From Blasia pusilla (Eukaryota), in NCBI GenBank assembly GCA_050084515.1, contig CM114271.1, positions 19,406,001 to 19,470,000 of the forward strand: a stretch of DNA of 64,000 bases, written 5' to 3'. Shown here one piece after another: positions 1,019-46,115 of this stretch. Position 1 is the first letter of the stretch; each line of letters starts with the position of its first letter. Position numbers and translations under genes: made by a program. Under the pieces are notes generated by a model, which saw only the letters and a list, made by a program, of their open reading frames with translations, was not told the DNA's origin and did no database searches.

Positions 1019-1050
<32 letters not shown>

Positions 1051-12348: not shown

Positions 12349-13320
12349 TGGCAGTGTCCAGAGGAGGGTGTTAGGGTGTTAGGGCTCTTCAAAGGGATAA
12401 ACATATGATTAGCAACGGTATTGCAAGCGGGCATACGAATGCATCACTACCTTTATGTGGAGAGAGATGAGATCGCGCGGCGAGTATCATTACTTCATGT
12501 AGCGAGATTGGTCCATAGGTATCCTGAGTTGTTTCCGATATCTGCACTACGGGGATATCAGTATACACTACCCACCGACATCTCTTTGGTGGGGGCGCAT
12601 GATCTAGATAGAGTTGGCACCATTCATTTGGTGATTGTTGGATGGCCATGTCAGGGTCATTCATCAGCTGGCCGAGGGTTTGGATTGCAAGATCCGAGGT
12701 CATGGATGTTTTGGGAGATGTTGTAAGTAGTACGACACTTTTAGGAGAGTCAGACATGTTTTCTGGCGTACATCTTGAAGAACGTGCCGTTGTTGGGAGA
12801 CACTCGTGCACGTATGCTGACGAGTGTGCATCAAATGAGGTCTTGGTTGGGAATTGCTGTGTTGTTAGATGCAGCAAGAGTTGGATCACGCGCCCATCGT
12901 CCATGACTGTGGTGGACAAACCTGATACCATCAAAGGTACTGAGTCAAGCATACGATGGAGTCCACAGAGCACCACATCTCATAGTGGATGTTATTTTGG
13001 CCTCAGGGCGTCGATCTCAGGTGGTGACGCGGGATGATAGACTACCGTTGGCGATGGCCAATAGGATGGGGGAGTTGAGGGTAGCCTCACCTACGTTGGT
13101 GAGCTTCCCAACATCCCATACCTTTCGTCAAGGAGGGCCACGCATGATTTCGGAATGAGATAACCCAAGCATTGGAGGAGCCTAGAGCAGATGAGCGCGA
13201 GCGCTACGGGTACTACGGCGGTGCCAGGTATGACTGAGGCATCCCGGAGACAGGTTTTGGGGCAGGCAATGGACCTCAACTATCTCACATGGATAGTCAG
13301 CCTTGGTATGGCTGAGCAGA
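12349..13320 (+). pseudogene. C5 cytosine DNA methyltransferase domain (DNMT3/DRM-like) inside pol of element A, disrupted
   Basis: Motifs in order: RVLGLFKGI (I), YLYVE (II), TDIS (III), LVIVGWPCQG (IV, catalytic Cys at 12649), DPRSWMFWE (V), YILKNV (VI), AHRP*LWWTN (VIII), RRQVLGQAMD (X). Several in-frame stops. Confidence 0.9.
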
Positions 13321-13599
13321 GACGGATGCAAGAGCCATCCATGCTGTCACGCCCACGAGTTGGACCATTGCCTACAGGGTCTGTACAGGCATTGGTTGGG
13401 AACGGGACCAGGAGAGATAGGCACCCATGGACTTCCTGGGACGTCGTTTGAGCGGAGAGTGCAAAGGCGGCCAGAGTAGCACATGTTCATGTTTTGGATG
13501 TTTTGGTGTAGGAGGTCAGAGTGGAGTGGTTGTTGCGGAGGTGGCTAGGGTTGCTACATAGCAACCAAAGCCAGAGGTTAAGTCTTCTCCGAGGGAGGT

Positions 13600-15084
13600 C
13601 ATGATGGAGACTTGGGAGCCTGTAATAGGTCTCAAGTTGATAGGAGGAGAGCGACGGCGAGTTCATAGGTTTTTGAGAGGGCATGTCAGTTGTTTTGCCT
13701 TTAGTATGAGAGACTTGGGTACGCTGAAGGGTCTCGGGATACGAATTGAGTTGGCTAGTGATTCGCCAATCTTTCGTCGACCCTTACAGGTATTCTGATA
13801 TAGAGCGAGCCTTGATTCAGAGCAAGAGTCAAGACTTGTTGGAGGCAGGACTTGTGGAGTTATCACATGGGGAATATGCATCTGCCACAATCATGCCGAA
13901 AAAGAAGGATATGTATGGCAATTGGATGGATAGGCGGATGTGTGGAGATTACCATCCAATCAACCGACCAACGAGGTCAAATCGGTAGGCCATGCCGACT
14001 CATGAAGAGATCTTTGATGGGGTTGGGCATGCAAAGATCTTCAGTACTTTAGATCTCCGTGTTGGCTATCATCAACTTCCTATCAGGTTGGAGGACAAGG
14101 AGAAGACAACATTCTGGGGGATAGATCAATTTGGGAGAGATTGCTTGTATCAGTGGCGGTTCTTACCATTTGGGTTGAAGAACACGCCTGCGGAGTTTCA
14201 GAGAGTGATGGATAGGATTTTGGCTGGCTTGGATTTTGTATGATGTTACATACATGATATTCTTATCTTCAGTTCCATGGTTGAGGAGCATGAGCGACAC
14301 CTGGAAGAGGTGTTTCAGCGATTGCAGTTACATAGACTGAAGTTACATCAAGGCAAGAGCACATTCTTTCAAGAGCAGATTGAGTACTTGGGACACACCA
14401 TATACCTGAGTGGGTTAGGTGTTCAGTAGACAAAAGTCGATGCTATTGCGCAGATTCCACGCCCTACAGATGTGATTCGAGTCCGAGCGTTTCTTGGACT
14501 AGTGAACTTCTATCGACGGTATGTAAAGGGTTTTAGTGCGATCGCAAAGTCTTTGACCTTATTGAGGAGACTTGATCAGGTTTGGTTGTGGGGAGATGAT
14601 CAGGAGCGAGCATTTTAGGAGCTCAAGGATAGGTTGACGTCCTTACCCATTTTACAGAGACCATTACCCATTCCAATTACATACGGATTGGAGCATGTTG
14701 GGTCTAGGAGCAGTGCTTACTCAGAGGGATGACGAGGAGAGGAAGTTTGTTGTGGCTTACGCAAGCCGATTGAACAACATTGTAGAGGCAAAATACAACT
14801 CTTACAAGGGAGAGTGCTTGGCTATAGTGTGGGCCATGGCACATTTGATGTGTTATTTATTCGACAACCCTTTCACACTTATCATTGATCATCAACCGTT
14901 GAGGTGGTTGATGGAGTCCGACAAGCTTACAAGAAAGCTTGCCATGTGGGATCTATTACTACAGGAGTATGAGTTTGAGGTGGTTCATAGACAAGGTAGG
15001 CTGAGCCAGGCTGCGGATGGGTTTAGTCGTAACCCATGTCCGATTCAGAGAGACAACAGAGGAGCTCGATGGTACGGAGAGAGT
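13600..15084 (+). pseudogene. Ty3/Gypsy reverse transcriptase and RNase H of element A
   Basis: RRMCGDYHPIN, FSTLDLRVGYHQ, LPFGLKNTPAEFQRVMD, CYIHD (decayed YIDD). RNase H: TDWSMLGLGAVLTQ, VAYASR, ECLAIVWA, IDHQPLRWL. Confidence 0.95.
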
Positions 15085-15212
15085 TGTCGTGCGCATACAC
15101 ATCGCTACACAACATACATCGCTGTCACCGAACACACACACAAACACGCATGATCCCATGCTAACTCATGGCATCCAAACAACGAGACAAGAAGAACCAA
15201 AATATCTCCAAT
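15085..15212 (-). repeat. Element B repeat B2 (outer 3' end)
   Basis: Near-identical to 15728-15861, differing by (CA)n length and one substitution. Confidence 0.95.
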
Positions 15213-15725
15213 AAAGTAAGATCCAATCTCTCTCTCCACCATCTCACACCATAGCTCTCAAAGGTGTGCACTCTCTCTCATGTCAAACCAAACCCACTCT
15301 CCTAATGAGAGGCTTGGGTTACACTCACAAGGCAAGGTACCATAGCTCCGCCGCCTCATGCCAAGAGGTTCAACAAAGAGAGAATGAGCTCTCAAGCTCT
15401 CTATCCTTGAGGTATACCCCTCTCCTCTCCCAAGCTCTCTTCATGGTAACCTATTCTCCCAAGTCACCTCCTTGGCTCTTGACCTAATGTAGGAGGTCAA
15501 GGGCCACTTACCAAAAATAGTAAGTCGATCATATATTCAAAATGATACTTACCTAAAATAGTAAGTTACTCAATATGGTTCCAAATGAGCCGAAACGAAG
15601 GGGAAACCTGCTATCTCAGGTTTCCAAAGGCCTCAGCACGTCACCCTTGACCTACTGGGCATGTCCTCCACTACTCATGAAGGCGCTCTATTAGATCCCA
15701 CCGATCTATCCTAAAAGACGTGACA
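15212..15725 (-). repeat. Element B repeat A2
   Basis: Direct repeat of 24818-25339. A manual count gives about 14 substitutions, mostly transitions, plus a (CT)n length change. Confidence 0.95.
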
Positions 15726-15727
15726 GT

Positions 15728-15861
15728 TGTCGTGCGCATACACATCGCTACACAACATACATCGCTGTCACCGAACACACACACACACACAAACACGCAT
15801 GATCCCATGCTAACTCATGGCATCCAATCAACGAGACAAGAAGAACCAAAATATCTCCAAT
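15728..15861 (-). repeat. Element B repeat B1 (internal copy of the 3' terminus)
   Basis: Copy of 15085-15212, separated from A2 by 2 bp (+ strand gtgaca-GT-tgtcgtg at 15720-15734). Confidence 0.95.
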
Positions 15862-16039
15862 CGCCCCCCTAGCTGGTGGTTAGGTCCCTCTAACTCCAGA
15901 TAGCCATCTATCCCTACCTGCCATGACATACATCTCTCGGACGCTAAGAGCAAGAAGGCCGGGTGATCATGTGGCCCCATTGTTAGTCACCTCCTTGTCA
16001 TCCATGTCATAGACACAAGTCGGAATGTAGAACTACCTT

Positions 16040-17300
16040 TTATGTACATCTAGGACACATCCATCATCCCTGAAGAACCCTAGTGAGAGGTGGCGTCAAA
16101 CATGCCATATGCCATCCTCTCGAACACCCATCACAGACTAGTATCGTGGCCGCACCACAGGCAAAACCACACAACATACAACGCAAGCCTGCAGGAACTA
16201 CTACTAAGCTCGGATCTACTGTACCATCAATGTTAGGAAGGTGACATGGCGCACAATTACGCACATGGTCCTTCCATACCATACCATCGCGTCCCTCCAG
16301 CAAGAGAACACCCGATGGCAAAATGTCACGCACTCTCAGGATAGTGCGCCCTGCAGTCACATCCAACGTCGTCGGTGTTGTCTGCTGCAAATAGACATAA
16401 TCTCCCTGATGAAATCTCCGGATAGTTGGTCGATAACCACCACCTCGAATAGTCGTATACCTCAACGTATCCCGATGTTGTGCAATCGCCAAGTTCTCGA
16501 ACGCCATGGGCATCACTCTCGAAATAACTCACCCTCGAGAACATGCTCGCACCCATACATCCGGGTCATCAAGGTTCAGCACCTCACCAAAGATCTCGAC
16601 GAATGGCCGCAGGTAAATCGGCTCTCGCCATAAAGTAGCAAGTACGGTGAAAAAGACGCTAAGGATGCTCTCTGAATTGACCAGATCCCATCGCCAACCA
16701 TGGCAATCGGAGGTCCCAATCTCTAGGTGACCTCTTGCAAGCCATACTTGCGTAAACCCCTCTTCACCGTCTGCACGACTCTCTCCGCTAATCCATCCGC
16801 CTCAGGATGATCTCGCGAAGTTGTGCGGTGGTTGATCAGCGCCTGATCACACAAGGCCTGGAACTCACCGCGAAACTCGGTACCCTGGTCTGTCAACACC
16901 TCAGCTGGTGCGCCATAATGACTCAACACTCTGTCAAGGAAGGCATAAGCTACTCCCTCACTTGCTTTGTCAGGCAATGCAACCAACTCGATCCACTTCG
17001 AGAAGTGCTCGACCATCACCAACACATAACAACTGTGACACTCCGTCAAGGGCAAAGGTCCTGCAAAATCCAAACTCCATCTATACCCTAAGCCCATGAT
17101 CGGTAATGGATGCAACTTTGGAGTCGGAGCATTGAACGATGCTCGGACCCGATCACACACCATGCACCTGGCAACAAACTGCTGAACGTCAGTCTGCATG
17201 CCTCGCCACCAATACTGAATCTGGAGCAAGCTATACGTCCGCTTCACCCCAAAGTGACCCAACTCCTCGTGGGCATCGCACTAGTCGTGCTCTCTGCAAA
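16040..17300 (-). pseudogene. DDE integrase with C-terminal PHD finger, element B
   Basis: HHCC (HEELGHFG...CMVC), WSLDFAGP, VLTDQGTEF, HPEADGLAERVV. Then a C4HC3 pattern CMLC...VCDGCSRGWHMACLTPPL...WMCPRC, ending at the TAA at 16040. Confidence 0.93.
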
Positions 17301-17599
17301 GGATGCGGCACTACGCGCACTCGCCATCCTCCCAAACCCTCAAAACATGTGTCCCCTCCCAACGGAACCGTCGGCCCATTTGAGAGGATCCGATCCCGCT
17401 CTCTAGCATCCATGGTGCTCGCAAGGCTGCCAGTACAAAGGTACTCTAAGACTACTCCATCATCATGAATATCTCGGCCACTTGTCGTATCCTCACTGGC
17501 TTCGGGATCTAAAGACTCTCCACTAGACCTCGCCATCAAAGTCTCCACACTCTGGCTCTCCATAGCCAACATGCCTAAATAGGGTCGACGCGTGCCATC

Positions 17600-19087
17600 C
17601 TGGCACCGACTCCTCATCACTCTCTCCATGCCATCGAGCTCCAGTCGCATCTCGCTGACTCGGGCATGGGTTACGACTCAACCCATCTGCATCCTGGTTG
17701 AGCGTTCCAGGTCTATGTACCACCTGAAAATCATACTCCTGCAACAACAGAGCCCATCTCGCAAGCTTCCCTGTAAGCTTGTCGGACTCCATCAACCACT
17801 TCGGTGGTTGATGATCGATGATGATGGTAAAGGGGTTGCCGAATAAGTAACACCTGAAATGCACGATGACCACACCGCAGCCCAAGCACTCACCCTCATA
17901 CGAGCCGCATTTGCCTCTGCAGCGTTGTTCGAGCGGCAAGCGTAAGCCACCACAAACTCTCACCTCATAATCATGTTGGGTGAGCACCGCCCAAGCCCCA
18001 ACATGCTCCAATGCGGTGCAATTGGAAAGGACGCCCGATCGGTCTCCTCAAGATGGGTGCGGACGTCAACTCGCCCTGAGCAATCTGAAATGCTCGCTCC
18101 CGCTCATCCCCAGTGCCACTCGTGATCCACCTTGGTGAGCAAGGTCACCGCTTTTAATCGAATCGAATCCCTTGACGATCGCCGATAGAAGTTCGCCAAT
18201 CCCATGAATGCGCCGAACACGACTCACATCGAGGGCGTGGAATGCGTGAGATAGCCTCTACCTTTGTCTCCTTTGAACACCAAGGCCCCGGGTATATCGT
18301 ATGATCCAAGTACTCAATCTGGTCGTAGAAGAACTTGCACTTGCCTGGATGTAGCTTCAGCCCATGTAATTGCAATCGTCAAAACACCTCCTCTAGATGT
18401 TGCTCATGCTCCTCAACCGTGGCGCTAAAGACTACGATGTCATCAATATAACACCTAGCAAAATCCAGACCAGCCAAGATCCTATCCATGACCCTCTAAA
18501 ACTCAGCCGGGGCATTCTTTAACCCAAATGGTAAGAACCGCCACTGGTACAAACAATCCTTCCCATGAGGATCGATGCCCCAAAATGCCGTCTTCTTTTG
18601 TCCTCCAACTGATAGGCAAGCGATGGTATCCACTCATAAATCAATGAATCAAGACCTTTGCGTGACCAATCGCATCAAAGATCTCCTCAGGGGTGGGCAT
18701 GGCATACCTATCGGACTTCGTCTGCCGATTGATAGGTCGGTAATCCCCACACATCCGCCTATCCGTCCAGTTGCCATGCACATCCTTCTTGGCGGGCATG
18801 ACAGTGGCAGATGCATACTCCCCATGCGACATCTCCACTAGTCCTGCTCTGACCAAGTCTTGGCTCCTACTATGAATCAGAGCCCTCTCCATATCACTGT
18901 ACCTGTAGGGTCTTCGGAAGATCGGCATATCACTCGACAACTCAATGCGGATCCCCGGTCCCTTCAGCGTACCCAAATCCTCCATGCTAAACGCAAAGCA
19001 GCTCCTATAACTCCTGAGGAACTGATGTATTCGGCGCCGCTCTCCTCCTGTCAACTTAGGGCCCATATCTGGCTCCCAAGTCTCCAT
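17600..19087 (-). pseudogene. Reverse transcriptase and RNase H, element B (frameshifted)
   Basis: RRMCGDYRPIN, YAMPTPEEIFD, LPFGLKNAPAEF, RCYIDDIVVF (about 18430-18455), IDHQPPKWL, GKLARWALLLQEYDF. Confidence 0.93.
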
Positions 19088-19409
19088 CGTGACTACAGTA
19101 GGACTCTCCGGCGCGGGTATCGGTGGTTGCTATGGTGCAACCCCATCTCGGCCGCTCTCCTGCAGCCAACTGCAAACTCTGATCTCCTCCACGTGCAGTG
19201 CCCGAAACCACGCACGATGTTGTGGCTATCATCTCCTTGCGTACCTTCAAAACATTCCAAGAAGTCCAAGGGTGTCTCTCCCGATCTCCCCTGGTGCGTA
19301 GATCTCCTCGGGTCTCGCTTGACCCACGCCTCCACCGTCTCGGTAGGCATGGGGCTCACCAACGCAACCGCTGTGATCTGTCGCGATCTCATACAACGCT
19401 GCTCAGCCA

Positions 19410-20370
19410 CTCCCAAGCTGAGGATCCATGTCAAGCTGTTCAAGTCCATCGCCTGACCCAAGACATGGCGCCGTGATGCCTCTAACATTGATGGTATTGC
19501 CGTCACTCCTGTGGGAAATCCCATCGCTCGCTCTCTCTCGTCGGCGTTGGGCTCCACCAACCGCTGAACCTGGTCATCCCAAACCAAGCCAGGACCGGCC
19601 TCCTTGTATGCATAGGAAGCGGAAAACTCACAACGTGGGCAAGGCGCCGCGGCCTCGCTACCTGTTGACCACGATCGGCGGTGGTCGATCATCGTGCCTC
19701 ACCGCCTCGATCGCGACCTGGATCGAGAATGGAATCCACTAACAAAGGGAGGGCGCTCCACTCTGATACGCCCTCCATAACACCGCATGGGGCACCAAGT
19801 TGGTCCACCATAGACGCGGGCGATGGGCTCTAGAACCTACACTCGCCGCATCCAAGAACACTGCTGGGCCGATCAGCACGCACTTTTTGATGAGCACTCG
19901 TCACGACTCGTGACTCGAGTCTCTAAGATCGGCACATTCTCTAGAATGTAGGTGGAGAACGAGGCCGGGTGCTCCTGAATCGCCGTAAGACCCTCAACAT
20001 CTCCCAAAACAACCTGGGAGTGTCAGCCAACCCGCTGCCTCGTCCATCACTCGATTGGCCCTAACATGGCCAACCGCAATGACCAAATCAATGGTCCCTA
20101 CCGCTCTAAGTCTTGCGCCCAACAACAAAATATCCTCGGTGAGGGAACTCTGGTACTCAGATCGCGGACCTTGCACAATAAGTCGGGAAAACGAGGGCGT
20201 AATTGCGCCCATGTCGTCGAGTGAGACGCGCCTTGCAACATCATCACTCTCCACATACAAATGGCCAGACTCGCACTCCTGCCTGCAAAAAAAGCCTAAC
20301 CCGGTGCTAATCCTCCAAAGAGATCTAACACTCGAATACCCTCCTCCGGGGTACACCACACAATGGGTGT
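19410..20370 (-). pseudogene. C5 cytosine DNA methyltransferase domain, element B (frameshifted)
   Basis: GIRVLDLFGG-ISTGL, LYVESD, IDLVIA-GWPC*G, LFWEML, TYILENVP (intact ENV), GSRAHRPRLWWTN (intact RxR), ERERAMGFP, RRHVLGQAMD. Confidence 0.9.
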
Positions 20371-20719
20371 AGTATCCAAGGGTGTCATCATAGCACTCCC
20401 CGCTACCTTGGGTTCCTCAGACCCGTCACGCTTTGGTGCAAACGCCTCGCTCCACGCGATGCCTGCGACGCAAGATCGCCAATCGTTGAAGCTCCTCAAT
20501 CGAGCCCCACAGCGACACCTCTCCTCCACGGAATGATGCAGCTACCATAACACTCCTCTCCTTTTAAATGTCAGGAACATGAGTATCCTCTGCATGGACA
20601 TGTCCCTCAATCAAATCACTAGGCCAAGTGATGGCACTGCTAAATCCGCTAAGGTCGCCATCTCTCTGGCCGCGTTTTCGATCATCGCACTGTGAATCGA
20701 GCGGGTAATGAGCTAAGGC

Positions 20720-21100
20720 GCCCATCACCGATCGCCATCTGGTGCAGCAGGGGCCGACTCCTCCCAAGTAATCAGGAAAACCCCATCGGGTATAACACGC
20801 TCCACCAACCAAGACGTCGTAGGACTCAAGATCGTCACTATCGCCTTGGCGCGCACCACGGACTCATATGTGGGATGTCCCGGGCAAATCCTCACCACGA
20901 CCTCTTGTCGGATGATATACTGTGTGGTACTCGCTCCATCCAAGGATGTCTGTATCCGAAATGGACAACACTCCACATCGGCTCCCGTCAAGCCCAATCC
21001 TCTGAATGACGCTTTCCCCAACATCAAGGGTTGCGCTCCTGAATCCAACAAGACGCGCTACGGACTAAAAGCTCTACCTCCAGGACTCACCAACTGGAAG
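20720..21100 (-). pseudogene. Retroviral-type aspartic protease, element B
   Basis: LLDSGAQPLMLG contains the D-S-G active site. The position is between gag and DNMT. Confidence 0.85.
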
Positions 21101-21989
21101 ACCTCTCCTCGGTTATCCAGCAACACAACACCAGGAGAAGCCATGGCACGCTCTATCGCGGGTCTAGCGGGCATCTCCGCCATCCTAGCGACCCGCACCG
21201 CCATGAATCGACGTGGGCGGCCCGAGCATCCGCCAGGCGGGTCCATCACTTCCTCTGCAATCACCTCTGAACGTGATGCAGGAACTCCAACTCTGCGCTC
21301 ACATAGTGAAGCGGCCAGCCGAAAAGCCTCGGCAGGCGTACCTCCCAACGTCACAACATCGGAAGCAGAAAATAAAGGAGTGCGGTACACAACGGTGGCC
21401 GCCCCCAACAACGTGCTCGACACATGCCCCTCCTGAGCATTGACAATAGGAGTCGTCGCACTAGCTTCTCCCATCGCCCTCCATGCTTGCACACCAACAA
21501 CATTACCAACTCTCCAGGAACTTTGATGAGGGCCCATCGATGGGGTCCTCATCGCTTCGGACAACGTGAAAGATTGAGGAAGCCTAGTCTGTCTACTGGC
21601 TTCCCCTCGCTGTGGATCCAACTCTGTGGCTGCTCCACGCATCACAACTACGGCGGCCTCCATCTGGGCAACCCCGCACATCCATCCAAGATCCTCCAGA
21701 TTTCTGGCTGCTCCATATGATGTCGATGCCACGGATCCGGCATCGGGTAACCTCAATGTCATAGCGGCAATCTGCTCCAGTAGTGTTGTATCGAGCGACC
21801 ATCCCGCCCTCACGTCCGGCATCTCCTCGGCGCGTCTAGGTGGTGGTACTCTACCTCCTCCACGGCAGCTCCACCACCCTGCCGGGCAACTCCGGCTCCT
21901 CGCCCCCAACGGGACCACGAGCACGATCTCTAGGCCCACCCGGACCGGCTTTCGCTCTAGTGCCCCTCTCCGGCCCTCGGTCCAGGACG

Positions 21990-23030
21990 TAACTCAGGAT
22001 GTAAACTAAAACACCTGGCGCGTGTATGACCATACCCCGACAATAGTCACACGATAACCTCCTGGTGCAAAGCACCATCTCCTCCTCTATCTTTGAGGCA
22101 CACGTCCATGACCGACGAGTGCAATCGGCGATGATGGGCTCCACCACATGACCAACAAGTAATAGTAGGCGGCTGCTGTTGAGACGATATGAAAGCGCAG
22201 TCTCGTGGCACGGCCTCTCGGTATCCTCCTCGAGCTCGTGGTGCCCTGATGTCGACCTATCTCGAGTCACGTTGCCGCAGGTGGTGCAAACAATCGTAAT
22301 CGCTTGCTCTCGCCAGAACCCATGGTGGCTACGCCTCCTCCGCCATGTTGCGCTCAATGTTCTCGGCGGTCCTAAAACATCTCTCAATGTAGGGGAGGTG
22401 TTCAAAAGAAGCACCCCCTCCCGCACCCGTGTCCGCAGGTCCGGTCCAACATCGCATACCATGTTGGATAGCTGAGCCTCTGTCACCCCCCCGAGTGGCG
22501 TTGATCAACCGGCGCAAGCGAGTGTAAGCCTCACGCAAACTCTCACCCGAGCGCCCTCGGAAGTCGTGGATGCTCCGCAACTTCTCCGTCCGTACCCCTC
22601 GTAGCTCGCCCTCAACTCAGCAAGAAAGAACTCAACCACGAGGGTTGAACTGGGATGAACCCGACTAGACGGTGCAATGCTCCCGTCGGCGAGTGATCCC
22701 TCCTAAAACGTCACTAGTGGAAGAGGCGTAGCCTCTCCCGACTCCTCCTCCTCATCCGGGAACGGCTCCGCCCATGACACATAATATGGGTCATAGTAGA
22801 GCCTCCACGCCTCGATCTCACATGCATATCTCTCGAGAGAACTCATGGTAATCGCCCATGGGCCCCCTCTAAATCTTTGGAACATACCGTTCCATGTCAA
22901 ACGGGTTGAACTCTCTAGAGTTCTTGGCCCCTACCGGGAGTCGCACCAACTCCTAAACTCGCTATAAAATCGTGCAACTCAATCGTGCCCCGCACTGAAA
23001 ACCTACGCGGTCCTCTACCCGGTCGTCCAT
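21990..23030 (-). pseudogene. Gag with zinc knuckle(s), element B (frameshifted)
   Basis: LRSIHDF...GESLREAYTRLRRLI resembles a gag major homology region. CDYCRGYGHTRARC (CX2CX4HX4C) is restored by adding one G at about 22040. Homologous to 42448-43520. Confidence 0.75.
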
Positions 23031-24817
23031 CTCGTACGCCCAAGTGGTAGGACCACTCACAATGTGTGGCGATGTGCTCACAAACTCCTCTACACCCTCC
23101 CCCTTGTCTGACGATGACACAGAAGGAGGTCGAGATGGTCCCTCACGTGGAGACCCTCAAAACCTCGCGCCACTCCGCGTAAAACCTCTAGAGCTACTCT
23201 CGGGTTCACCACCTCGCCTCTCAAAGTCCCAAACAGACTCCGTGATGACCCTCGTGCCCCTCTCACCCAATCACTCTGAACCTCGTGAGGAATCCCTCAA
23301 TCACTCATCCCAAACATGCGGCACTCGATCTACACTCTCTCCCGAGGCGTGTAACGCGGCAACACGCGGCGTGGTGCGGCAAATCGACCAGGCTATCATC
23401 TCATCGACAACCTACCCTCAACTCCGGACATCCCACACAGGTCTATGTCCCCTAAACCACATACATAAATGATGCTCTCAGCATCCACACACCCAATATC
23501 CCCAAATAAATCCCAGAATCCCTCACACGTGCTGGGTAAAGGACCAGAATGGGTAACCTGAACACATGTCGATGTCGCTCCTCAGCAACTGCAAATATTG
23601 ACCCCAACTCGATCGTGGAGACAACTCCTCCAATCAGCAAGTCATACTCCTCCCGTACTGATGCTGCTCAAAACTCCTCGACTCCAGCGGAACAGTGTGG
23701 CGTTGCAGGCGGCACGAAACGGCTACGAACGGCACGGCCCTCGTTGGAGGGATGCGGCACTCGGCGGCATACCCTCCTCAATCAATAATAATCCCACACT
23801 CTGCTCCACAATGACGGTGCGACTCCGCGATCGAGATAGTGCGTTGCGGCCACGAGCGGCACGGCGCGGCAATCGGCGGCGCGGGTTACGGCGTCACGCA
23901 GACGATACTCGATCGTCGTCGAGCGGCTACCAATCACAACATAGCAGCATGAAATCAAAACTCAAACACCATAACCAGAGGTCATCTGCCTTCACTGGTT
24001 GATGAAGAAACTGCGATGACGGTGGTGGCCAAAACAAAGTACGTGGTGGCGACGCAAGTCAAGGAATCAACGAACATCATGGAAGACCCTCCACTCCGTA
24101 ATGGCGGCAATGGTACCCAAAGGGTGGACAATGGACGGTGGACCCTTGACAGTGATGGTTGACCACTGATGGTGACGGCCGACCGATGACGGTGACAGTT
24201 GACCGTCGACCGTTGACGGTGATTATGATGGCGACGGCCGCCGCCGGTGTGGCGGCTGATTTAGGGTTTGCACGATTTAACCCTAAAAATCGCCTAGCAA
24301 TGGCAGCCTTACAAGATTGCCCATAACTTTTTGCTCGCAACTCCAAATTGTGCACTATTTGTTGCACAGCGTGCACGGCTTCACGATCTACGCTACCATC
24401 AAAAAATATTTAGAATCAAAAATTTCAGTAAAAACTGACGGGGACTTTTATAAAGCCCAATGTCTCTTTCTCCTACACAAAATTTGGCAGCGCTCCCGCG
24501 CTGATTTCTCCCAACGAAAATGTAACATCTGTAAAAATACAAGTCAACAAGCTACATGGTGCTCCCGAGAGCACCAGCATGGGGCAACCCGCCCCCATAC
24601 TCAATCCCTATCAGAAATTGGGCAGCGCTTCCGCGCGCCACTCTTCCACACGAAAAATCGGCAAATGCAAAGAGTAATGAAAGCTGCCCTTGCTCTGGTG
24701 AGCACTCCCATGAGCCGCTGAACGGGGAACACGGTCCCCAACCTGCAAAAACAGCGAGTGACCAGCGAGCTCCCCCATGAAGCTCTCTCACTGTCTCATT
24801 CTCTCATTCTCTCTTTG

Positions 24818-25339
24818 TAAAGTAAGATCCAATCTCTCTCTCCATCATCTCACACCATAGCTCTCAAAGGTGTGCACTCTCTCTCATGTCAAACCAAACC
24901 CACTCTCCTAATGAGAGGCTTGGGTTACACTCACAAGGCAAGGTACCATAGCTCCGCCGCCTCATGCCAAGAGGTTCAACAAAGAGAGAATGAGCTCTCA
25001 AGCTCTCTCTCTCTCTCTCTTTGAGGTATACCCCTCTCCTCTCTCAAGCTCTCTCCATGGTAACCTATTCTCCCAAGTCACCTCCTTGGCTCTTGACCTG
25101 ATGTAGGAGGTCAAGGGCCACTTACCAAAAATAGTAAGTCGATCATATACTCAAAATGGTACTTACCTAAAATAGTAAGTTCTTCAATATGGCTCCAAAT
25201 GAGCCGAAACGAAGGAGAAACCTGCTATCTCAGGTTTCCAAGGGCCTCAGCACGTCACCCTCGACCTATTGGGCATGTCCTCCACTACTCATGAAGGCGC
25301 TCTATTAGATCCCACCGATCTATCCTAAAAGACGTGACA
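24818..25339 (-). repeat. Element B repeat A1 (5' end)
   Basis: Direct repeat of 15212-15725. It is not followed by a B repeat; the next element-sense sequence is caaagagagaatgag. Confidence 0.95.
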
Positions 25340-25343
25340 GAGT

Positions 25344-26932
25344 GACGAGGAGATGGTGCCCGGTTGGCATGCATGTGCCTATCTTTGTTGGTTGACTATG
25401 GTAGGTCAGCCACGCGTGATTATTCTAGTGGTGGGGATGGATGATGAGTCTTTGGATCCAGAGGTCAATCACGAGGTGACAGGTGGTTGTGATATCCATG
25501 ATGATATGGAGGTTGTGGAGTTCCTGCGCACTGGCGTCATAGCGAGCACAGTGAGTGCTAGGGAGCGAGATCGGATCCTACAGAGAGCCAGGAGGTTCAA
25601 GTGGGAGGAGGCTCATATTTTTCGGATATGGGGAGATGGTAGGATACGAGTGGTACCTCATCCTTCCCAGCGAGCACGTGTAGTGCGACATGCCCATGAG
25701 GAGTTGGGGCATTTTGGAGTAAAGCGTACTTACAGCTTCCTCTAGGTTCAGTATTGGTGGCGTTGCATGCATACTCACGTACAACAATTTGTGGCCAGAT
25801 GTATGGTATGTGACAGAGTGCGAGCATCCTTCAATGCTCCCACTCCGCAGATACATCCTTTTCCGATTATGGGTTTAGGTAATTTATGGAGTTTAGACTT
25901 TGCGGGACCTTTGCCATTGACGGGGCGTCATCATAGATACGTGTTGGTCATGGTGGAGCATTTCTCCAAGTGGATAGAGTTGGTGGCACTACCAGACAAG
26001 GCAAGCGAGGGAACAGCTTATACATTTCTAGATCGTGTGCTTAGTCACTTTGGTGCACCGGAGGAGGTGTTGACTGACCAGGATACCGAGTTTAGGGAAG
26101 AGTTTCAGACCTTATGTGATCAGGCGTTGATAGATCACCGCATCACGTCCAGAGATCATCCTAAGGCGGATGGGTTGCCGAAGAGAGTAGTACAGATGGT
26201 GAAGAGAGGATTGCGCAAGTATGGCTTGCAGCGGGGACAATTGAGGGAGTGGGACCTACAGTTGCCATGATTGGCTATGGGTTATGGCTTTAGTCGACAG
26301 GCATCCTTGGCGTCATTTTCACCGTACTTTTTGCTCTTTGAGAAAGAGTCAGATTTACCTATAGCTATTCGATGTGACATGGCAAAGGTGCTATATCTTG
26401 ATGATCCAGATGTGTGGGTACAAGCGTGTTCACATAGGGCAGAGATTTTTCATAGAGTTATGCCTATGGCCTTTGAGAACTTAGCTTTTGCTCAACATAG
26501 AGATACATTGAGGTACGCGACCATTTGTGGAGGAGGTTATCTTCCAGGGATTAGGAGGTTTCATCCGGAGATTACATGTATTTATAGCAAGCGGCACCCA
26601 CGACGTTAGAGGTCACTGTAGGGCATACGATCCTACATGTGCGCGAGGTATTATCGACCTGAGTCCTTATGTTGGAAGGACGGAATGATATGGTTTGGAA
26701 GGATCATGTGCATAATTGTGGGCCATGTCATCTTCCGAACGTAGACGGGACAGTGGATCCGAGCTTGGCAGTGGTACCTGTAGGCTTGAAGTATATGTTG
26801 TGCAGATCTGCAAAGGGTGCAGCCACGATGTTGGTATGTGATGGTTGTTCTTGAGGGTGGCATATGTCATGTCTGACCCCCCCTCTTGATGTAGTTCCCA
26901 CGGGACGACGGATATGTCCGAGATGTGTATAG
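25344..26932 (+). pseudogene. DDE integrase with C-terminal PHD finger, element A
   Basis: HAHEELGHFG...CMVC, WSLDFAGP, VLTDQDTEF, then YMLC...VCDGCS*GWHMSCLTPPLDVVPTGRRICPRC and the stop at 26930-26932. Confidence 0.93.
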
Positions 26933-27010: not shown

Positions 27011-27705
27011 TGTGTGGATCCACCCGTGTGTGGGGAAGATCGGTGTTGTGTGGTGTAGATATGACCAACAATGTATGTTGTGTAGCGATATGTATGCACA
27101 CGACAGTTGTCACATCTGAGTAGCCGATAGGCCGAGATCTATCGTGGATAGGGCGTAGGAGCCAGCAGAGTGTCTTGAGTGTAACTTTGTCCCACGGTAT
27201 TGAATGAGGTTGAGGATAGGTCCGTTGTGTCAGGAACGTTGTTTTTTACAACTTCCTTGTTGAGGTCTTTCACAACCGGGTGACTTGTTGACCAGGTCAC
27301 CCGCCCTTGGTAACATGTGCGCGTAGGTTACCAGGAGAATAGCTATTTATAGGGGAAGAGCCTTTTGGCTCTTCCCAACCCTATATAAGAGAGGAAGATG
27401 GCTTTCCTAAGCCATCTTTCTCATGTTGGGCCGTTGGAGTACCTCTCTTGTATGTGTGTGAGATAGGACTAGGGTGCTAGCATTCGGATTCCTTGATAGC
27501 TCAAGGTGGTCGAGGCTCGATATGCCAATGTAGATTGAGGAGTGGAGTTTTAGGCCGGGTGTGCCGTTTTTACTATTTGTTATTTTAGTTGTGTGATCTC
27601 CATGTATATGTATGAGTTGATTTATGTACATGTGTGGATCCATCCGTGTGTGGGGTAGATGTAACCAGCGATGTATGTTAGGTAGCGATACGTTTGCGCA
27701 TAACA
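27011..27705 (+). repeat. Element A 3' end: B1 (27011-27105), GT spacer, A2 (27108-27630), B2 (27631-27705)
   Basis: 'tgtgtggatcca.ccgtgtgtgggg.agat...atgtatgtt..gtagcgata.gt.tgc.ca..aca' occurs twice. The junction cacgaca-GT-tgtcac lies at 27099-27113. Confidence 0.85.
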
Positions 27706-30043: not shown

Positions 30044-30400
30044 GATCCTAAGCTCAAGCGCCGCTAAGCCACCTCGTCATCTTAAGCTAAACCCCGGCGC
30101 AAAGCTGATCCTAATCCCAACCCTAAACCCATGATATGCCGCGGGCTGAAGCACATCGCAATGGCATTCCCCAAGCTCATCATTACCGTAAGCTCGTCGC
30201 GAAGCGACTCGTTAATAATAATGATCCTAAGCTCAAGCGCCCCCAAGCCACTCGTCATCTTATCCTCGACCCCGGCGCGAAGCTGATCCTAATCCCAACC
30301 CTAAACCCATGATATGCCGAGGGCTGAAGCACATCGCAATGGCATTCCTCAAGCTCATCGTTACCGTAAGCTCGTCGCGAAGCGACTCGTTAATAATAAT
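30044..30400. repeat. Tandem duplication, 2 x ~179 bp
   Basis: 'gatcctaagctcaagcgcc...gcgaagcgactcgttaataataat' at 30044-30222 and 30223-30400. Confidence 0.95.
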
Positions 30401-39946: not shown

Positions 39947-40664
39947 TATCACGTCTTTTAGGATAGATCGGTAAGATCTAGTAGAACGCCTTTGCGAGTA
40001 GTGGAGGACAGACTCAAGAGGTTGAGGATGACCTACTGAGGCCCCGGGAAACATGAGAGAGCAGGTTTTCCCTTCGTTTCGGCTCATTTGGAGCCATATT
40101 GAGGAACTTACTATTTTAGGTAAGTACCATTTTGAGTATATGGTCAACTTTATATTTTTGGAAAGTGGCCTTTGACCTCCTACATCAGGTCAAGAGCCAA
40201 GGAAGTGACTTGGGAGCATAGGTTATCATGGAGAGAGCTTGGGAGAGGGAAGGGGTATACCTCAAGGAGAGAGAGCTTGAGAGCTCATTCTCTCTTTGCT
40301 GAACCTTTTGACATGGGGCGGCAGAGTTATGGTCCCTTGCCTTGTGAGTGTAACCCAAGCCTCTCATTAGGAGAGTAGGTTTGATTTGACATTGAGAGAG
40401 ATATGTGAGAGTGCACACATGTGAGAACTATGGTGTTATGAGAGAGATCCGATCTTATTTTACAAAGAGAGAATGAGTGAGTGAGAGAGCTTCATGGGGG
40501 AGCTCGCTAGTTGCTTGATGTTTGGCGCAAGTTTGGGGACCGTGTTCCCCGCCTCATGGCTCATGGGAGTGCTAACCAGAGCAAGCGCCGTGCAAGTTTG
40601 TTGTTTTGCTTTGCTGATGTTTTGTACGGGAGAATGGCACACGGAAGCGCTACCCAATTTTTGA

Positions 40665-41108
40665 TAGAAATTGAGTGTGAGGGCGGATTTCTCCATGCTG
40701 GTGCTCTTGGAAGCACCATGTAGCTTGTTGATTTGTGTTCTCATAGATTTTATATTTTCTTTGGGAGAAATCAACGTTGAAGCGCTCCCAAATTTTATGT
40801 AGGAGAAAGAGACATTGGGCTTTACGACAATCCTTGTCAGTTTTTACAATAATGTCCGATTCAAAATATTTTTTGACGTTGTTGTAGAAATTGAGTGTGA
40901 GGGCGGATTGCTCCATGCTGGTGCTCTTGGAAGCACCATGTAGCTTGATGATTTGTGTTCTCATAGGTTTTACATTTTCTTTGGGAGAAATCAACGTTGA
41001 AGCGCTGCCAAATTTTATGTAGGAGAAAGAGATATTGGGCTTTACGACAATCCTTGTCAATTTTTATAGTAATGTCCGATTCAAAATATTTTTTGACGTT
41101 GTTGTAGA
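40665..41108. repeat. Tandem duplication, 2 x 220 bp, in the leader of element C
   Basis: 'tagaaattgagtgtgagggcggatt...ttttgacgttgttg' at 40665 and 40885. The segment is single-copy in element B (about 24395-24615). Confidence 0.95.
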
Positions 41109-42447
41109 TGGTAAAGTTGTGCATGTTTTGCAATAGACAATGTGCAATTTGGAGTTGCGAGCAAAACGTTATGATCAATCTTGCAAAATTTCCATTGGTA
41201 GGAAATTTGTAGGGTTAAATTGATCAAACCCTAAACTAGCCGCCGCGTCGGCGGCGGCCGTCGCCGTCATAGTCACTGTCAATGGTCAATCATCACTGTT
41301 AATGGTCCACCATCCACCATCCACCGTCGGCCTCCGCCGCTGCCGCCTAGGGTTGCTCAGAGCCGCGTTTGACGGTTGTCCACCCTTGGTTGCCATTTTC
41401 GCCATTACGGAGTGGAGGGTCCTCCACAACGACTGTTGATTCTATGACTTGTGCCACCACCACATACTTTTTTTTGTCCGCCATTGTAATCATAGTTTCG
41501 TCATCAACTTGTGATGGTAGGTGATCTCGGGGGTTATGGTGTTTGAGTTTTCATTCCATGCTGCTATGTTGTGATTGGTAGCCGCTCAACGACGATCGAG
41601 TACCGTACCGTGACGCCCGTAGCTGCAACGCGCCACCGATTGCCATACCATGCTGCTCATGGCCGCACCCCACCATCTCAATCATGGAGCTGCTTCTTCA
41701 CTAAGAAGAAGAGCGTGTGAGTTTTTGATTGAGGAGGGTATGCCGCCGAGTGCCGCATTGGACTGCTGGACTTGCACCGCATATCAAGGAGGTTTGAGCA
41801 ACGTCAGTACGAGAGGAATACGACTTGCTGATTGGAGGAGTTTTCTTCATGACTAAGTTGGGGTCGAGATTTGTAGTTGCCGAGGAGCGACATCGACATT
41901 ATTGGTAGGTTACCCATTTTGGTCTCTTACCCTACACGTGTGAGGAATTTTTGAGTATTGGGAAGTTATTTGGGATATTGGGTTCCGTGCTGATGTTGAG
42001 AGCATCAATGATGTATGGGTTTAGGGGACATTGACCTATGTGGGATGTCTAGAGTTGAGGATGGTTTGTCGATGAGATGATAGATCAGTTGATTTGCCGG
42101 ACCATGCCGCTTGTTGCCGCACAACACACATCTTAGAGAGAGAATGTAGATTGAGTGCCGTATGTTTAGTTTTAGTGATTGAGGGATTACTTGCAAGATT
42201 GAGAGTGATCGTGTGAGAGGGGCACGAGGGCCATCACGGCGTCCTTTTGGGATTTTGAGAGGCAAGGTAGTGGACCTGAGAGTAGCTCTCGAGGGTTTAC
42301 CTGAAGTGGTGCGAGGTTTGGAGGGTCTCCATGTGAGAGACCACCTCGATCTCCTTCTGTGTCAACTTCAGACAAGAAGAGCATGTAGAGGAGTGTGTTA
42401 GTGATCCACCGTACATATTGAGTGGTCCTACAAGTTGGGCATACGAG

Positions 42448-43520
42448 ATGGACGACCGGGGTAGAGGACCGCGTAGGTTTTCGGGTTCTGTAGGTACTAT
42501 ACAGCTTCACGACTTCATTGCAGAGTTTAGGAGTTGGTATGACTCACAACGGGCTAGAAACTCTAGAGAGTCCAACCCGTTTACAACATGGAATGGTATA
42601 TTCCAGCATTTAGAGGGGGCTTCCATGGACGATTACCATGAGTTCTCTCAGAGATATGCCCAAGAGATTGAGGCATGGCGACTCTACTATGATCCACTCT
42701 ATGTGTCATGGATAGAGCCGTTCCCAGATGAGGAGGAGGAGTCAGGAGAGGCTTCTTCTTCTTCCACCATTGATGTTTTAGGAGGGATAACTCGCACTGG
42801 AGCAATTGCACCGTCCATTCGGGTTCTTCCGAGGTTCAACCTCGTGGCTGAGTTCTTTGCTAAGTTGAGGGCCAGCTACCAGGAGGTACGGCCGGAGAAG
42901 TTGCGGAGCATCCACGAATTCCAGAGGCGCCTTGGTGAGAGTTTATGTGAGGCTTACACTTTCTTGTGCCGGTTGATCAACGTCACTCACGGGATGACAA
43001 AGGCTCAGGCTATCCAATCCTGGTACCCGATATTGGAGCGGACCCTACGGACACGGATGCGAGAGGGGGACTTCTTATGAACATCTCCCCTACGTTGAGA
43101 GATGTTTTTAGGACCGCCAAGAACATTGAGCGCAACATGGTCGAGGAGAGCGTAGCCACCATGGGTTTTGGGCGAGAGCACTCACGATTGTGTGCACCAT
43201 CAATGCTGCAACCGCCTACAATTACTTGTTGGTCCTCCGAGATAGGTTGACTGTGGCACCACGAGCTCAGGGAGGATCCCGGGAGGTCGTGCCACAGAGA
43301 CCTGCGCCTTCATTTACGGCTCAACAGCAACCGCTTAAGATTACTTGTCGATCATGTAGTGGAGCCCATCATTAGCATGATTGCACTCGTTAGGGTCATG
43401 GACGTGTGCCTCAGGATGGCGGAGGAGATGGTGTTGCACTAGGAGGTTATCAGTGTGATTACTGTCAGAGATATGGTTATACACGCGCGAGGTGTTTTGT
43501 GTACACCTTGAGTTATGTCC
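42448..43520 (+). pseudogene. Gag with two zinc knuckles, element C
   Basis: MDDRGRGPRRFSG...LHDFIAEFRSW...FQRRLGESLCEAY. Knuckles CRSCSGAHH*HDC (about 43345) and CDYCQRYGYTRARC (about 43454). Confidence 0.75.
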
Positions 43521-44399
43521 GGACCGAGGGCCAGAGAGGGCACCAAAGCAAGTAGCCGGTCGGGTGGGCCTAAAGATCGTGCACCAGGTGGTCCTGTTGG
43601 GGGACGAGGAGCTGGAGTTTCCGGACACGTTGATGGAGCTGCCCATGGAGGAGGTAGAGTCCCACCACCTAGACGCGTCGAGGGAGATGCAAGGCGTGAG
43701 GTTGGGATGGCTCCTCAGATACAACAGCTACAAGAGCAGATTTCTGCTATGGCATTGAGGTTACTCGATGCCATATCCGTGGCATCGACATCATATGGAG
43801 CACCTACAGATATGGTTGGATGTGGGGAGTTGCCCAGATGGAGGCCGCCGTAGTATGACACGTGGAGCAGCCATAGAGTTGGATCCACAGCGAGGGGAAA
43901 GCCAGGAAACAGACCAGGCTTCCTTAGTCTTTCACATTGACCGAGGCGATGAGGACCCCATTGATGGGTCTTGATAAGAATTTCCGAAGAGTTGGTGATG
44001 TTATTGGTGTGCAGGAAAGGAGGACAATGGGAGAAACAAGTTGGACGACTCCCATTGGAGATGCTCAGGAGGAGCATGTGTTGAGTACGATGTTGGGGGC
44101 GGCCACGATGGTGTACCTTGCTCCGCTATTTTCTACTTCCAATGTTATGACATTGGGAGCTACGTCCGCCGAGTTGTTCCGGCTGGCCGCTATGGAATGT
44201 GAGCATGAAGTGGAGTTGGAGTTCCTACATCACGTTCAGAGATGATTGCAGAGGAGGTGATGGACCTGCCCTTGGAGCGGATGCTCAGGCCGTCCACGTC
44301 ACATTCATGGCTGGCTGCGGCTACTAGGATGGCGGAGATGCCGGCTAGACCCGCGATAGAGCATGCCATTGCTTCTCCTCGTGTTGTGTTGCTGGATAA

Positions 44400-44790
44400 T
44401 TGGGAAGAGGTCTTCCAGTTGGTGAGTCGTGGAGGTAGAGCTTTTAGTTCGTATTGCGGCTTGTTGGATTCAATTGTGCAACCCTTGATATTGGGAAAAG
44501 CATCATTGAGAGGATTGGGCTTGACGAGAGCCGATGAGGAGCGTTGTCCATTTCAGATACAGACATCCTTGGATGGAGCAAGTACCACATAGTACATCAT
44601 CCGACAGGAGGTTGTGGTGAGGATTCGCCCAGGACATCCTACAGATGAGTCCGTGGTGCGAGCCAAGGCGATAATGACTGATGTAGAGTCCTACGACGTT
44701 TTGGTTGGTGGAGCAGTGTTATATGCGATGGGGTTTTCCCTGGATTATTGGGAGGAGTCAACGTCCTACAGACGAGGATGGCAGTCAAGT
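44400..44790 (+). pseudogene. Aspartic protease, element C
   Basis: LLDSIVQPLILGK (decayed DSG) followed by SYDVLVGGAVL. Confidence 0.8.
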
Positions 44791-45159
44791 GATGGTTGCC
44801 TTAGCTCATTATCCGTTCAATTCACAGGTGTAGTGATCAAGCGATGGCTAGGAGAGATGGCGACATTAGTAGCATTTAGCAATGCCATCATTTGGCCTAG
44901 TGATTTGATTGAGGGACATGTCCATGCAAAGGATACTCCCGTTCCTGACATTTCTATGGAGAGGAGTGTCATGGTAGTCGCATCAGTCCGTGGAGGAGAG
45001 GTGTCGCTTTAGGACTCGACTGAGGAGCTTTGACGCTTAGCCACTGAGCATGTGCAAATTGCATGGAGCAAGACATTTGCACTAGAGTGTGATGGGTCAG
45101 AGGAACCCCAGGTAGCCAGGAGTATTGCTATGATCACTGTGGACACCCCCTTGATTGTG

Positions 45160-46115
45160 TGGTGCATCCCAAAGAAGGGTATTCGGGTGTTGGGTCTCTT
45201 TGGAGGGATCAGCACTGGGTTAGATGTTGTTTTCCATAGTGGAGTGCGCGTGCAGGAGTACATGTATGTGGAGATTGATGATGTTGTGAGGCACGCTTCA
45301 CTTCACCATGTGGCGCAGTTATGCCTCCGTTTTCTCGACTTGTTGTCTGCGTCTGCCATTCAAGGTTACTAGAGTTTCCTACCGAGAGATATTTCATTGT
45401 TGGGGGCGTAGGACTTGGAGCGGGTAGGGACCATAGACTTGGTCATTGCTGGTTGGCCATGTCAGGGCCAGTCGAGTGCTAGACGAGGTAGCGGATTTGG
45501 TGACTCTTGGTCCATGTTGTTTTGGGAGATGAAGCGGATCTTGCGACACTTGCAGGAGCATCAATCTTGTCCTCCAACATACATTCTGGCGAATGTACCA
45601 ATTTTGGGCGATTTGAGGTCCGTGTGGTGACAAGTGCACATTAGGTGCGCACATGGATCGGCCGACAGTTTTGTTGGATGTGGCCAGTATGGATTCATGA
45701 GCACATCGCCCGTGTCTTTGGTGGACCAACTTTATACCACACGAGGTATTGCAGAGGGCATATGCGAGAGTCAAGCGCCCCTCCAATTTTTTTGGTGGAT
45801 TCTATATTGGATCCGAGCCGTCGATCACAGGCAATGAGGCATGATGATGGACCGCCGTTGACTGTGGTCAACAAGATTGGCATGCCACGGGCAGCCTTTC
45901 CCACTTCTTATGCATTCAAGAAGGTCGGACCTAGCTTGGTTTGGGATGACCACGTACAGAGGTTGGTGGAGCCCAACGCAGATGAGCAAGAGCAAGCAAT
46001 GGGATTCCCCACTGGAGTGACGGGAGTACCATCACTATCAGAGGCATCACGACGTCATATCTTGGATCAAGCAATAGACCTGAACTACTTGACATGGATT
46101 TTCAGCTTAGGAGTA
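45160..46115 (+). pseudogene. C5 cytosine DNA methyltransferase domain, element C
   Basis: GIRVLGLFGGISTGL, YMYVEID, IDLVIAGWPCQGQS, LFWEM, YILANVP, AHRPCLWWTN, EQEQAMGFPTGVT, RRHILDQAIDL. Confidence 0.92.

Follow-up and report, generated by a model that had tools for sequence, protein, structure and literature searches.

Decayed Ty3/gypsy elements with a DNMT3-like methyltransferase domain in the land plant Blasia pusilla

A stretch of 64,000 nucleotides from Blasia pusilla (assembly GCA_050084515.1, contig CM114271.1, positions 19,406,001 to 19,470,000 of the forward strand; hereafter the window, in whose own numbering coordinates are given) contains three broken retroelements, A, B and C, in each of which a cytosine methyltransferase (MT) domain follows the protease (PR). 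We consider it probable, at roughly three chances in four, that these are decayed copies, belonging to two subfamilies, of a land-plant Ty3/gypsy family with Gag, PR, a DNMT3-type MT, reverse transcriptase (RT), RNase H (RH), a DDE integrase (INT) and a PHD finger, and that this family represents Gypsy-DNMT3 elements in land plants, as a branch of that kind. To judge from the published texts at hand, the kind is known from Klebsormidium, and a land-plant member has apparently not yet been described.

Results

The MT domain was mapped by frameshift-aware alignment to residues 860-1215 of P0006, a protein of Marchantia polymorpha with an intact 1278-residue Gag-PR-MT frame that is annotated as a hypothetical protein. 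The domain spans 12334-13354 (+) in element A (339 codons, 64% identity to P0006, 3 frameshifts, 4 stops), 19357-20400 (-) in B (341 codons, 60% identity, 12 frameshifts, 2 stops) and 45139-46166 (+) in C (339 codons, 58% identity, 2 frameshifts, 5 stops). When the whole window was searched by tblastn with the MT domain, only these three places were found. An earlier reading made from the letters of the window (the sequence-only reading) had proposed three gypsy elements with an MT domain of this kind after the protease, and the 339-341 codons recovered in each of A, B and C uphold it; its placement of the MT ahead of RT likewise holds in A and B, as judged by tblastn with the proteins of relatives, while C is cut off after the MT.

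What remains here is transposon debris. Among the frames of 100 codons or more that were listed for 9-24 kb and 40-52 kb, the longest has 311 codons, and in a three-frame translation of the three stretches the MT motifs are scattered over the frames and cut by stops. Motif I reads LGLFKGINI* in A, LDLFGGLAPG in B and LGLFGGISTG in C (asterisks mark stops); motif IV is GWPCQG in A and C and GWPC*G in B; motif VI is ILKNV, ILENV and ILANV in A, B and C, respectively; motif VIII is AHRP*LWWTN, AHRPRLWWTN and *AHRPCLWWTN; motif IX is ERER followed by a break in A, ERERAMGF in B and EQEQAMGF in C; and motif X is RRQVLGQAMD, RRHVLGQAMD and RRHILDQAID. None of the window copies holds the intact catalytic set (FxGxG in motif I, PC in IV, ENV in VI and RxR in VIII), at least one motif being broken in each. 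The full set of C5-MTase motifs is thus obtained only across the copies, as had been stated, and no single copy has every motif. Intact catalytic motifs are present in the relatives, namely in P0006, in 15 of 15 members of a closer family alignment and in nearly all of the 127 relatives described below.

Pfam assigns the C5 methyltransferase profile PF00145 a curated cut-off of 22 bits. With stops read through as X, both element A, at 24.2 bits (E 2.7e-5), and C, whose first half scored 34.7 bits (E 1.7e-8), rose above the cut-off, and the expected match to a C5-MTase profile was therefore found in two copies. In single-frame read-through translations PF00145 was not detected in B, because this copy is too frameshifted. 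A search of a protein atlas for the family returned PF00145 and nothing further. Compared on its own with solved structures, copy A gave weak matches, with a spurious ankyrin on top (E 0.0075) and DNMT3A at E 0.012. When the solved structures were all searched with a profile made from 16 members of the family, DNMT3A/3B/3C ranked first (E 3.2e-19 to 1.9e-14). DRM came second (E 3.3e-11), through profile positions 10-145 only, which fell on DRM residues 226-351 in the C-terminal part of that protein; a match to half of the profile is expected there because DRM is permuted. M.HhaI (E 1.5e-8) and DNMT2 (E 7e-4) followed in the same search, and DNMT1 was absent from the matches of the family profile among all solved structures.

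The predicted fold points in the same direction. Residues 869-1204 of P0006 were modelled with AlphaFold2 from a 36-row alignment (pLDDT 94.9, pTM 0.93), and when the model was compared with the PDB by Foldseek, DNMT3A/3B/3C made up all listed matches through rank 50. Target-normalised TM-scores reached 0.78-0.85 with chains of the catalytic domain and fell to 0.40-0.56 with longer ones; identity was about 21%. The motifs run in the linear order I, II, IV, VI, VIII, IX, X, and the circular permutation of the DRM type, in which VI-X precede I-V, was not found in the window domain. Upstream of the MT no PWWP or ADD reader was found, only Gag and protease being there. Taken together, the profile match, the family profile and the fold matches of P0006 agree with the proposed parallel to DNMT3 and with an order not permuted as in DRM. 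A DNMT3-like, unpermuted identity of the domain is thus supported, on the ranking of profile and modelled fold.

A search with copy A returned 23 longer proteins, with Marchantia, Calypogeia and Sphagnum at E 1e-101 to 1e-23; the best of them (56-64% identity) were hypothetical proteins of Marchantia polymorpha, followed by Calypogeia fissa and two Sphagnum species, and in several the MT shares a single frame with RT and RNase H. Among 1.84 billion representatives scanned by HMMER, 1365 proteins matched at E <= 0.001 and 441 at E <= 1e-10, many of them 1000-3200 residues long, and 60 metagenome loci encode a relative. Architectures were counted for hits of at least 700 residues. The commonest was RT-RH-MT-INT-PHD (40), followed by GAG-PR-MT (24), MT-INT-PHD (17), PR-MT (11), RT-RH-MT (10), RT-RH-MT-INT (7), MT (7) and PR-MT-RT-RH-INT (3), besides smaller classes. 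The named hosts of the RT-RH-MT-INT-PHD form are chlorophytes (Chlamydomonas eustigma, Scenedesmus sp. and Monoraphidium neglectum), and those of the GAG-PR-MT(-RT-RH-INT-PHD) form are bryophytes, both liverworts and mosses.

A quick maximum-likelihood tree of 130 MT domains was built from the three window copies, with X at their breaks, and those 127 of 237 sequences that covered at least 280 profile positions and had a neighbouring domain for typing; its root is arbitrary. The window copies fell within a fully supported set of 14 rows together with Marchantia and Calypogeia sequences. For the two architectures, the tree gives one clade with 43 rows and a support of 86 and another with 82 rows and a support of 92; five rows stray from this division.

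Selection on the domain was estimated from pairwise ratios of nonsynonymous to synonymous substitution (dN/dS; Nei-Gojobori), with codons aligned through P0006 and stop codons dropped. The ratio was 0.21 for A-B (318 codons) and 0.21 for A-C (321 codons), with dS near saturation at 1.84 and 1.79, respectively, and 0.33 for B-C (319 codons, dS 0.89). The ratios between window copies are inflated because the copies decayed after insertion. Between intact metagenome relatives the MT ratio was 0.14 (L018-L032, dS 0.25), 0.12 and 0.10. Moreover, catalytic residues are conserved almost throughout the 127 relatives, of which 83 are of the algal form and 44 of the bryophyte form. The cysteine of motif IV is present in 83/83 algal and 43/44 bryophyte sequences and the glutamate of motif VI in 83/83 and 44/44; the two arginines of motif VIII are kept in 82/83 and 81/83 of the algal form and in 43/44 and 44/44 of the bryophyte form. 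The asparagine of motif VI is also nearly invariant. From these codon and residue comparisons the domain is judged to be under purifying selection. The proposal that it is a selected part of the element therefore gains from the ratios in both sets as well as from the retained Cys, Glu and Arg; neither a ratio near 1 nor a family lacking PC, ENV and RxR, both named beforehand as possible outcomes, was found, the motifs being kept in relatives.

These data bear on two other explanations of the domain. On one of them, the MT would be a piece of a host DNMT3 gene that a few copies picked up by accident, or would arise from reading decayed DNA. All window copies are indeed broken, with motifs pieced together across frames, but the domain holds the same position in two window subfamilies, recurs in the 1365 proteins and 60 metagenome loci, lies in an uninterrupted frame in one of these loci (L018, described below) and appears to be under purifying selection, and we regard this explanation as extremely improbable. 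On the other, the MT would have a structural role as a pseudo-enzyme, or its substrate would be RNA or RNA:DNA hybrids instead of double-stranded DNA. The proline of the PC motif is replaced by glutamate, giving EC, in 50 of the 83 algal-form members, and the MT of the Klebsormidium element KnitGypsy-Dnmt3 failed to methylate yeast DNA (PMC5890265). Against this stand the near invariance of the Cys, of the motif VI Glu and Asn and of both motif VIII Arg in the 127 relatives, and a fold and profile that fit the DNA enzymes of the DNMT3 group far better than the tRNA enzyme DNMT2 (E 7e-4). A pseudo-enzyme or RNA-directed role thus seems quite unlikely to us.

The anatomy of the elements was worked out by comparison of the window with itself, by Pfam and by tblastn with P0006 and a second Marchantia protein, P0009. 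Element B is the most complete. It lies whole inside A at 15085-25339 (-), with TG...CA ends and a duplicated target, GAGT or AGAGT, on both sides. Following its own orientation, it comprises a 5' repeat, A1 (24818-25339), a Gag remnant (22370-22969, tblastn), a protease with an LLDSGA motif (20740-21036, tblastn), the MT, RT and RNase H (17715-19093; Pfam RVT_1 7.3e-20, RT_RNaseH 1.2e-11), an integrase with its H2C2 zinc-binding part and DDE core (16780-17271; Integrase_H2C2 1.4e-14, rve 4.2e-13) and, after the integrase, a PHD finger (16046-16180; PHD 3.3e-7), all on the minus strand. The order PR-RT-RH-INT, with RVT_1, RT_RNaseH, Integrase_H2C2 and rve, agrees with the earlier assignment to the Ty3/gypsy type. 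No tyrosine recombinase of the phage-integrase family was found by Pfam in B or in the proteins of relatives, which have rve and Integrase_H2C2 instead. The best solved matches of the PHD finger were the PHD fingers of CHD4, PHF12, PHF21A, KAT6A, KDM5 and UHRF1, and no ADD domain was among the best matches listed. Several of these PHD fingers are readers of the histone H3 tail that is unmodified or unmethylated at K4.

Element A is read on the plus strand. By tblastn with P0006 and P0009 its protease region lies at 11700-12326, and upstream of it no match to Gag or to a 5' repeat was found. After the MT come RT and RNase H (13613-15075; tblastn and self-comparison), which are cut by the insertion of B. 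A resumes at 25341-26929 with the end of the RNase H region, the integrase and the PHD finger (26813-26929). The target duplication after B begins at 25340, and the first A residue there is a Ser codon at 25341. Excising B together with one copy of the duplication restores the reading frame of A (...ARWYGE|SDEEMVPGWHA... across the insertion, as compared with ...ARWHGESDEESVPGWHA... at the same place in B). The 3' end of A occupies 27011-27705 (B1 27011-27100, A2 about 27101-27630, B2 27631-27705) and finishes in ...AACA. An inverted copy of this A2-B2 end, 73-77% alike, abuts the truncated 5' side of A at 11317-11691 (-). It is probably a rearrangement or a second, opposed copy; an inverted terminal repeat of the DIRS1 type was considered and rejected, since A has neither Gag nor A1.

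In its own orientation B reads A1, coding region, B1, A2, B2, the 3' end at 15085-15861 (-) consisting of B1 (15861-15727), A2 (15726-15212) and B2 (15212-15085); A1 and A2 are 95.6% identical and B1 and B2 94% alike. The 3' layout of A is the same, yet the long repeats of the two elements are unlike and only stretches of 35-47 bases at the B segments match. The sequence-only reading spoke of terminal repeats that differ between the subfamilies. Two subfamilies with unlike long repeats are indeed present, but the repeats are not plain long terminal repeats, because the 3' end has an extra B1/B2 pair; they are split direct repeats (A-coding-B-A-B). This layout bears that name in PMC4157794, and an A-coding-B-A-... 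arrangement typical of DIRS elements is ascribed to KnitGypsy-Dnmt3 in the legends of Figs 1 and 4 of PMC5890265. The same arrangement was found in a metagenome locus unrelated to the window, L009, with A1 at 1679-2017, B1 at 10238-10342, A2 at 10350-10691 and B2 at 10693 to about 10805, TG...CA ends and a target duplication AAGG. No obvious primer site of the tRNA-Met type was seen after A1, an inspection by eye and not a systematic search for primer-binding sites and polypurine tracts.

In element B and in L009 (10238-10797) the B1-A2 junction consists of the 3' end (...ACA), two bases and the 5' end (TGT...), the two bases being AC in B and GC in L009. As far as the sequence goes, B1-A2 resembles an end-to-end (circle) junction of the element that is kept as an internal copy.

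Between MT and RT the elements carry a stop codon in a recurrent context. The motif TAG CAA CCA lies at 13559-13567 (+) in A and at the homologous position, 19124-19132 (-), in B; a stop followed by CARYYA is a consensus readthrough signal (PMC5397192). The apparently intact metagenome locus L018 has a 7.2-kb frame (1006-8229) with a single in-frame TAG (at 5083), so that Gag-PR-MT (1006-5085) ends in TAG CAG TTA and RT-RH-INT-PHD continue in the same frame to 8229. The survey took in 32 loci or copies in which the end of the MT and the start of RT are both present. In 11 of them the MT frame meets its first stop at a fixed distance, as TAG with CAA or CAG after it; in four this stop is TAA-CAA-CCC at the same place, and in two TAG is the second stop; the remainder, apart from those without a stop that are taken up in the Discussion, are frameshifted. 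P0006 ends about where the conserved stop lies, which explains the 24 GAG-PR-MT proteins. The statement that the MT sits inside the polyprotein is therefore correct in that it is in frame with PR and RT in intact relatives, but needs amending in that the MT ends the first open reading frame (ORF1), with an in-frame UAG before RT.

RNA reads map to B (15000-21200) at 95-99% likeness; of the roughly 760-820 reads in each run, no more than 17-22 reach 99%. In one orientation the depth is 1-31, against mostly less than 2.6 in the opposite one, and over the MT region it is 1-12; assuming the usual stranded library, reads on B are about 10 times commoner in the sense orientation. Hardly any reads lie on element A. 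Those on B depart from its sequence at fixed points, for example 18651 and 19874. These divergence points and the 95-99% likeness indicate that the reads come from sister copies of the B subfamily. An RNA joint between 15179 and 15829 was considered as splicing and rejected; it is best read as sister-copy reads that lie partly on B2 and partly on B1.

Element C, on the plus strand, has a 5' repeat A1 (39947-40462) that is 85% identical to the A1 of B, Gag (42499-43077) and a protease (44479-44823), the last two found by tblastn. Over 5.6 kb it shares 78.6% identity with B; the likeness ends at 46364 and everything from RT onward is lost. C breaks off about 200 bases after the MT, adjoining a fragment of a CACTA-type transposase, which is seen as two adjacent Transposase_21 (CACTA/En-Spm) frames at 46449-47330 (-) with E 4e-24 and 2e-26. 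The leader between 5' repeat and Gag is unusually long, about 1.9-2.0 kb, in both B (24817-22970, -) and C (40463-42498, +), and no domain was found in either leader. That of C includes a tandem repeat (40665-41108) of 220 bases present twice and 96% alike. Elsewhere in the window, a repeat of about 178 bases occurs twice (30044-30400, 94% alike) in AT-rich DNA. The only clear piece of a host gene seen in the window is an alpha-expansin exon at 59086-59544 (+; DPBB_1, E 1.2e-24), whose best named match is from the liverwort Calypogeia fissa (79%), with no near-identical named protein among the matches listed. The exon points to a land-plant host, probably a liverwort and probably one other than M. 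polymorpha.

Discussion

The data can be joined into a fuller picture, which we put forward tentatively and hold to be somewhat short of even odds. Liverworts and mosses, Marchantia polymorpha included, would harbour a still-transcribed gypsy lineage that carries an active de novo methylase of the DNMT3 type as the tail of Gag-protease, ahead of a leaky UAG like that of plant viruses. Its ends would be rebuilt from the internal junction copy (B1, 2 bp, A2), its insertion guided by the PHD finger and its own DNA marked by 5-methylcytosine, and the algal form would represent the same capture moved within the polyprotein. If the UAG is leaky, the MT would be made in amounts like those of Gag, and Pol only through readthrough. 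The protease could then free the MT within the particle, and the MT might methylate the element's own double-stranded cDNA or the fresh insertion, a step that we think conceivable and rather short of probable. Methylation of the element's own cDNA has already been put forward as a hypothesis in the abstract and discussion of PMC5890265. The integrase with its PHD finger may in turn steer insertion toward chromatin with an unmodified histone H3 tail.

This picture should be interpreted with some caution, since several observations weigh against it. First, all three window copies are dead, fossils from which the enzyme could no longer be made. Secondly, the leakiness of the stop is something that we infer from its context and conservation, and neither is uniform: four of the 32 surveyed loci or copies have no stop between MT and RT, and the strict CARYYA fit is found in 8 of 32 only, the others ending in CCC or CCT. 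The motif TAGCARYYA occurs three times in the whole window with 3.4 expected by chance, and therefore only its homologous position is informative; the third site (36809) is without likeness to the element family. Thirdly, split repeats (the B pair) were found in 3 of the 11 elements examined. They were not found in the other eight, three of which have at most 1.2 kb after the PHD finger, and the short contigs L018, L028, L047 and L057 showed no long repeats. The link of the domain to DNMT3 is one of profile and fold ranking and not of a rooted tree that includes host DNMT3 or DRM, and the link of the family to KnitGypsy-Dnmt3 is one of shared architecture, by the text of PMC5890265, and not of sequence. 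The unmodified H3 tail as target of the PHD finger is a guess from the best solved-structure matches. Finally, in the only activity test of a Gypsy-DNMT3 domain, that of KnitGypsy-Dnmt3 gave no methylation in yeast, a result that its authors call inconclusive (PMC5890265).

Where the product of the MT would act is a separate question. The enzyme might work in trans, marking host chromatin near insertions or rival transposons or mimicking gene-body CG methylation, or it might serve mainly as a tether of the pre-integration complex to DNA or chromatin. Its place in ORF1 ahead of the stop would yield far larger amounts of it than of RT and integrase, the element also bears a histone-reading PHD finger, and effects on the host epigenome are discussed in PMC5890265. 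The conserved catalytic residues argue against a purely structural tether. On balance we consider action in trans or tethering unlikely, and methylation of the element's own cDNA or fresh insertion remains the role that we would favor.

Because the three copies are fossils, this window alone carries small biological weight. Gypsy-DNMT3 elements are widespread in bryophytes, with an intact frame in Marchantia, and the question thereby moves to land plants with genetics and methylome tools; sister copies are also transcribed in the organism of the window. If our reading is true, why a transposon should carry a silencing enzyme could be tested in a tractable land plant. The MT before a readthrough-type stop, the PHD finger on the integrase and the junction-like split repeats bear on replication and on the landing site. 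We consider these features worth following, above all the stop, the PHD finger and the internal repeat with its likeness to a junction, and with them the existence of two architectures.

Among cellular enzymes, DNMT3A/3B/3C are the best match of the family by profile and fold, and share the linear order of motifs I-X. The family differs from them in its identity of about 21%, in its lack of PWWP and ADD domains, in its place inside a transposon and in a stretch from motif VIII to motif IX that is longer by about 50 residues (336 residues in the model compared with chains of about 285). Plant DRM is a distant homologue (E 3e-11), but is circularly permuted. Chromoviruses are Ty3/gypsy elements with a chromodomain after the integrase. 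In comparison with them the window family is alike in carrying a histone reader at the C-terminus of the integrase, and has a PHD finger instead.

With respect to the ends, a comparable layout is that of the Ngaro/PAT elements, whose split direct repeats (A1-B1-A2-B2) likewise have an internal pair downstream of the coding region (PMC4157794). These are tyrosine-recombinase retrotransposons, whereas the window elements have no such recombinase. The precedent named in the sequence-only reading, retrotransposons with a DNMT domain in dinoflagellates and a charophyte alga, is borne out by PMC5890265 for dinoflagellates and Klebsormidium. SymbioDIRS-Dnmt3 of Symbiodinium, as presented there, is alike in having a DNMT3-type domain in a retrotransposon, A-coding-B-A-B repeats and two coexisting domain orders. 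It uses a tyrosine recombinase, in contrast to the DDE integrase, TG...CA ends and target duplications of the window elements.

No published description of Gypsy-DNMT3 from liverworts, mosses or other land plants was found in the texts consulted (including PMC11982613, PMC6453930 and 10.1101/2021.02.12.428880), and the supplements of PMC5890265 and PMC12344493 may list more hosts. Later texts (10.64898/2026.05.21.726589 and PMC12344493) cite PMC5890265 for "streptophytes". No Klebsormidium protein appeared by name among the relatives that we found. The nearest known system is KnitGypsy-Dnmt3 of Klebsormidium nitens (de Mendoza et al. 2018, PMC5890265). The window family is unlike it in having a land-plant host and relatives in liverworts and mosses, and the main text of that paper mentions neither the PHD finger (the term "PHD" occurs 0 times) nor a UAG that parts MT from RT nor a target duplication of 4 bp. 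What the two have in common, according to the same text, is the set of Gypsy domains, a coding region that includes a DNMT3-related domain without permutation, and the A-coding-B-A-B repeats. Purifying selection on the domain is likewise common to both, with a Ka/Ks below 0.2 in KnitGypsy-Dnmt3 (PMC5890265) and ratios of 0.10-0.14 in the intact relatives of the family described here.

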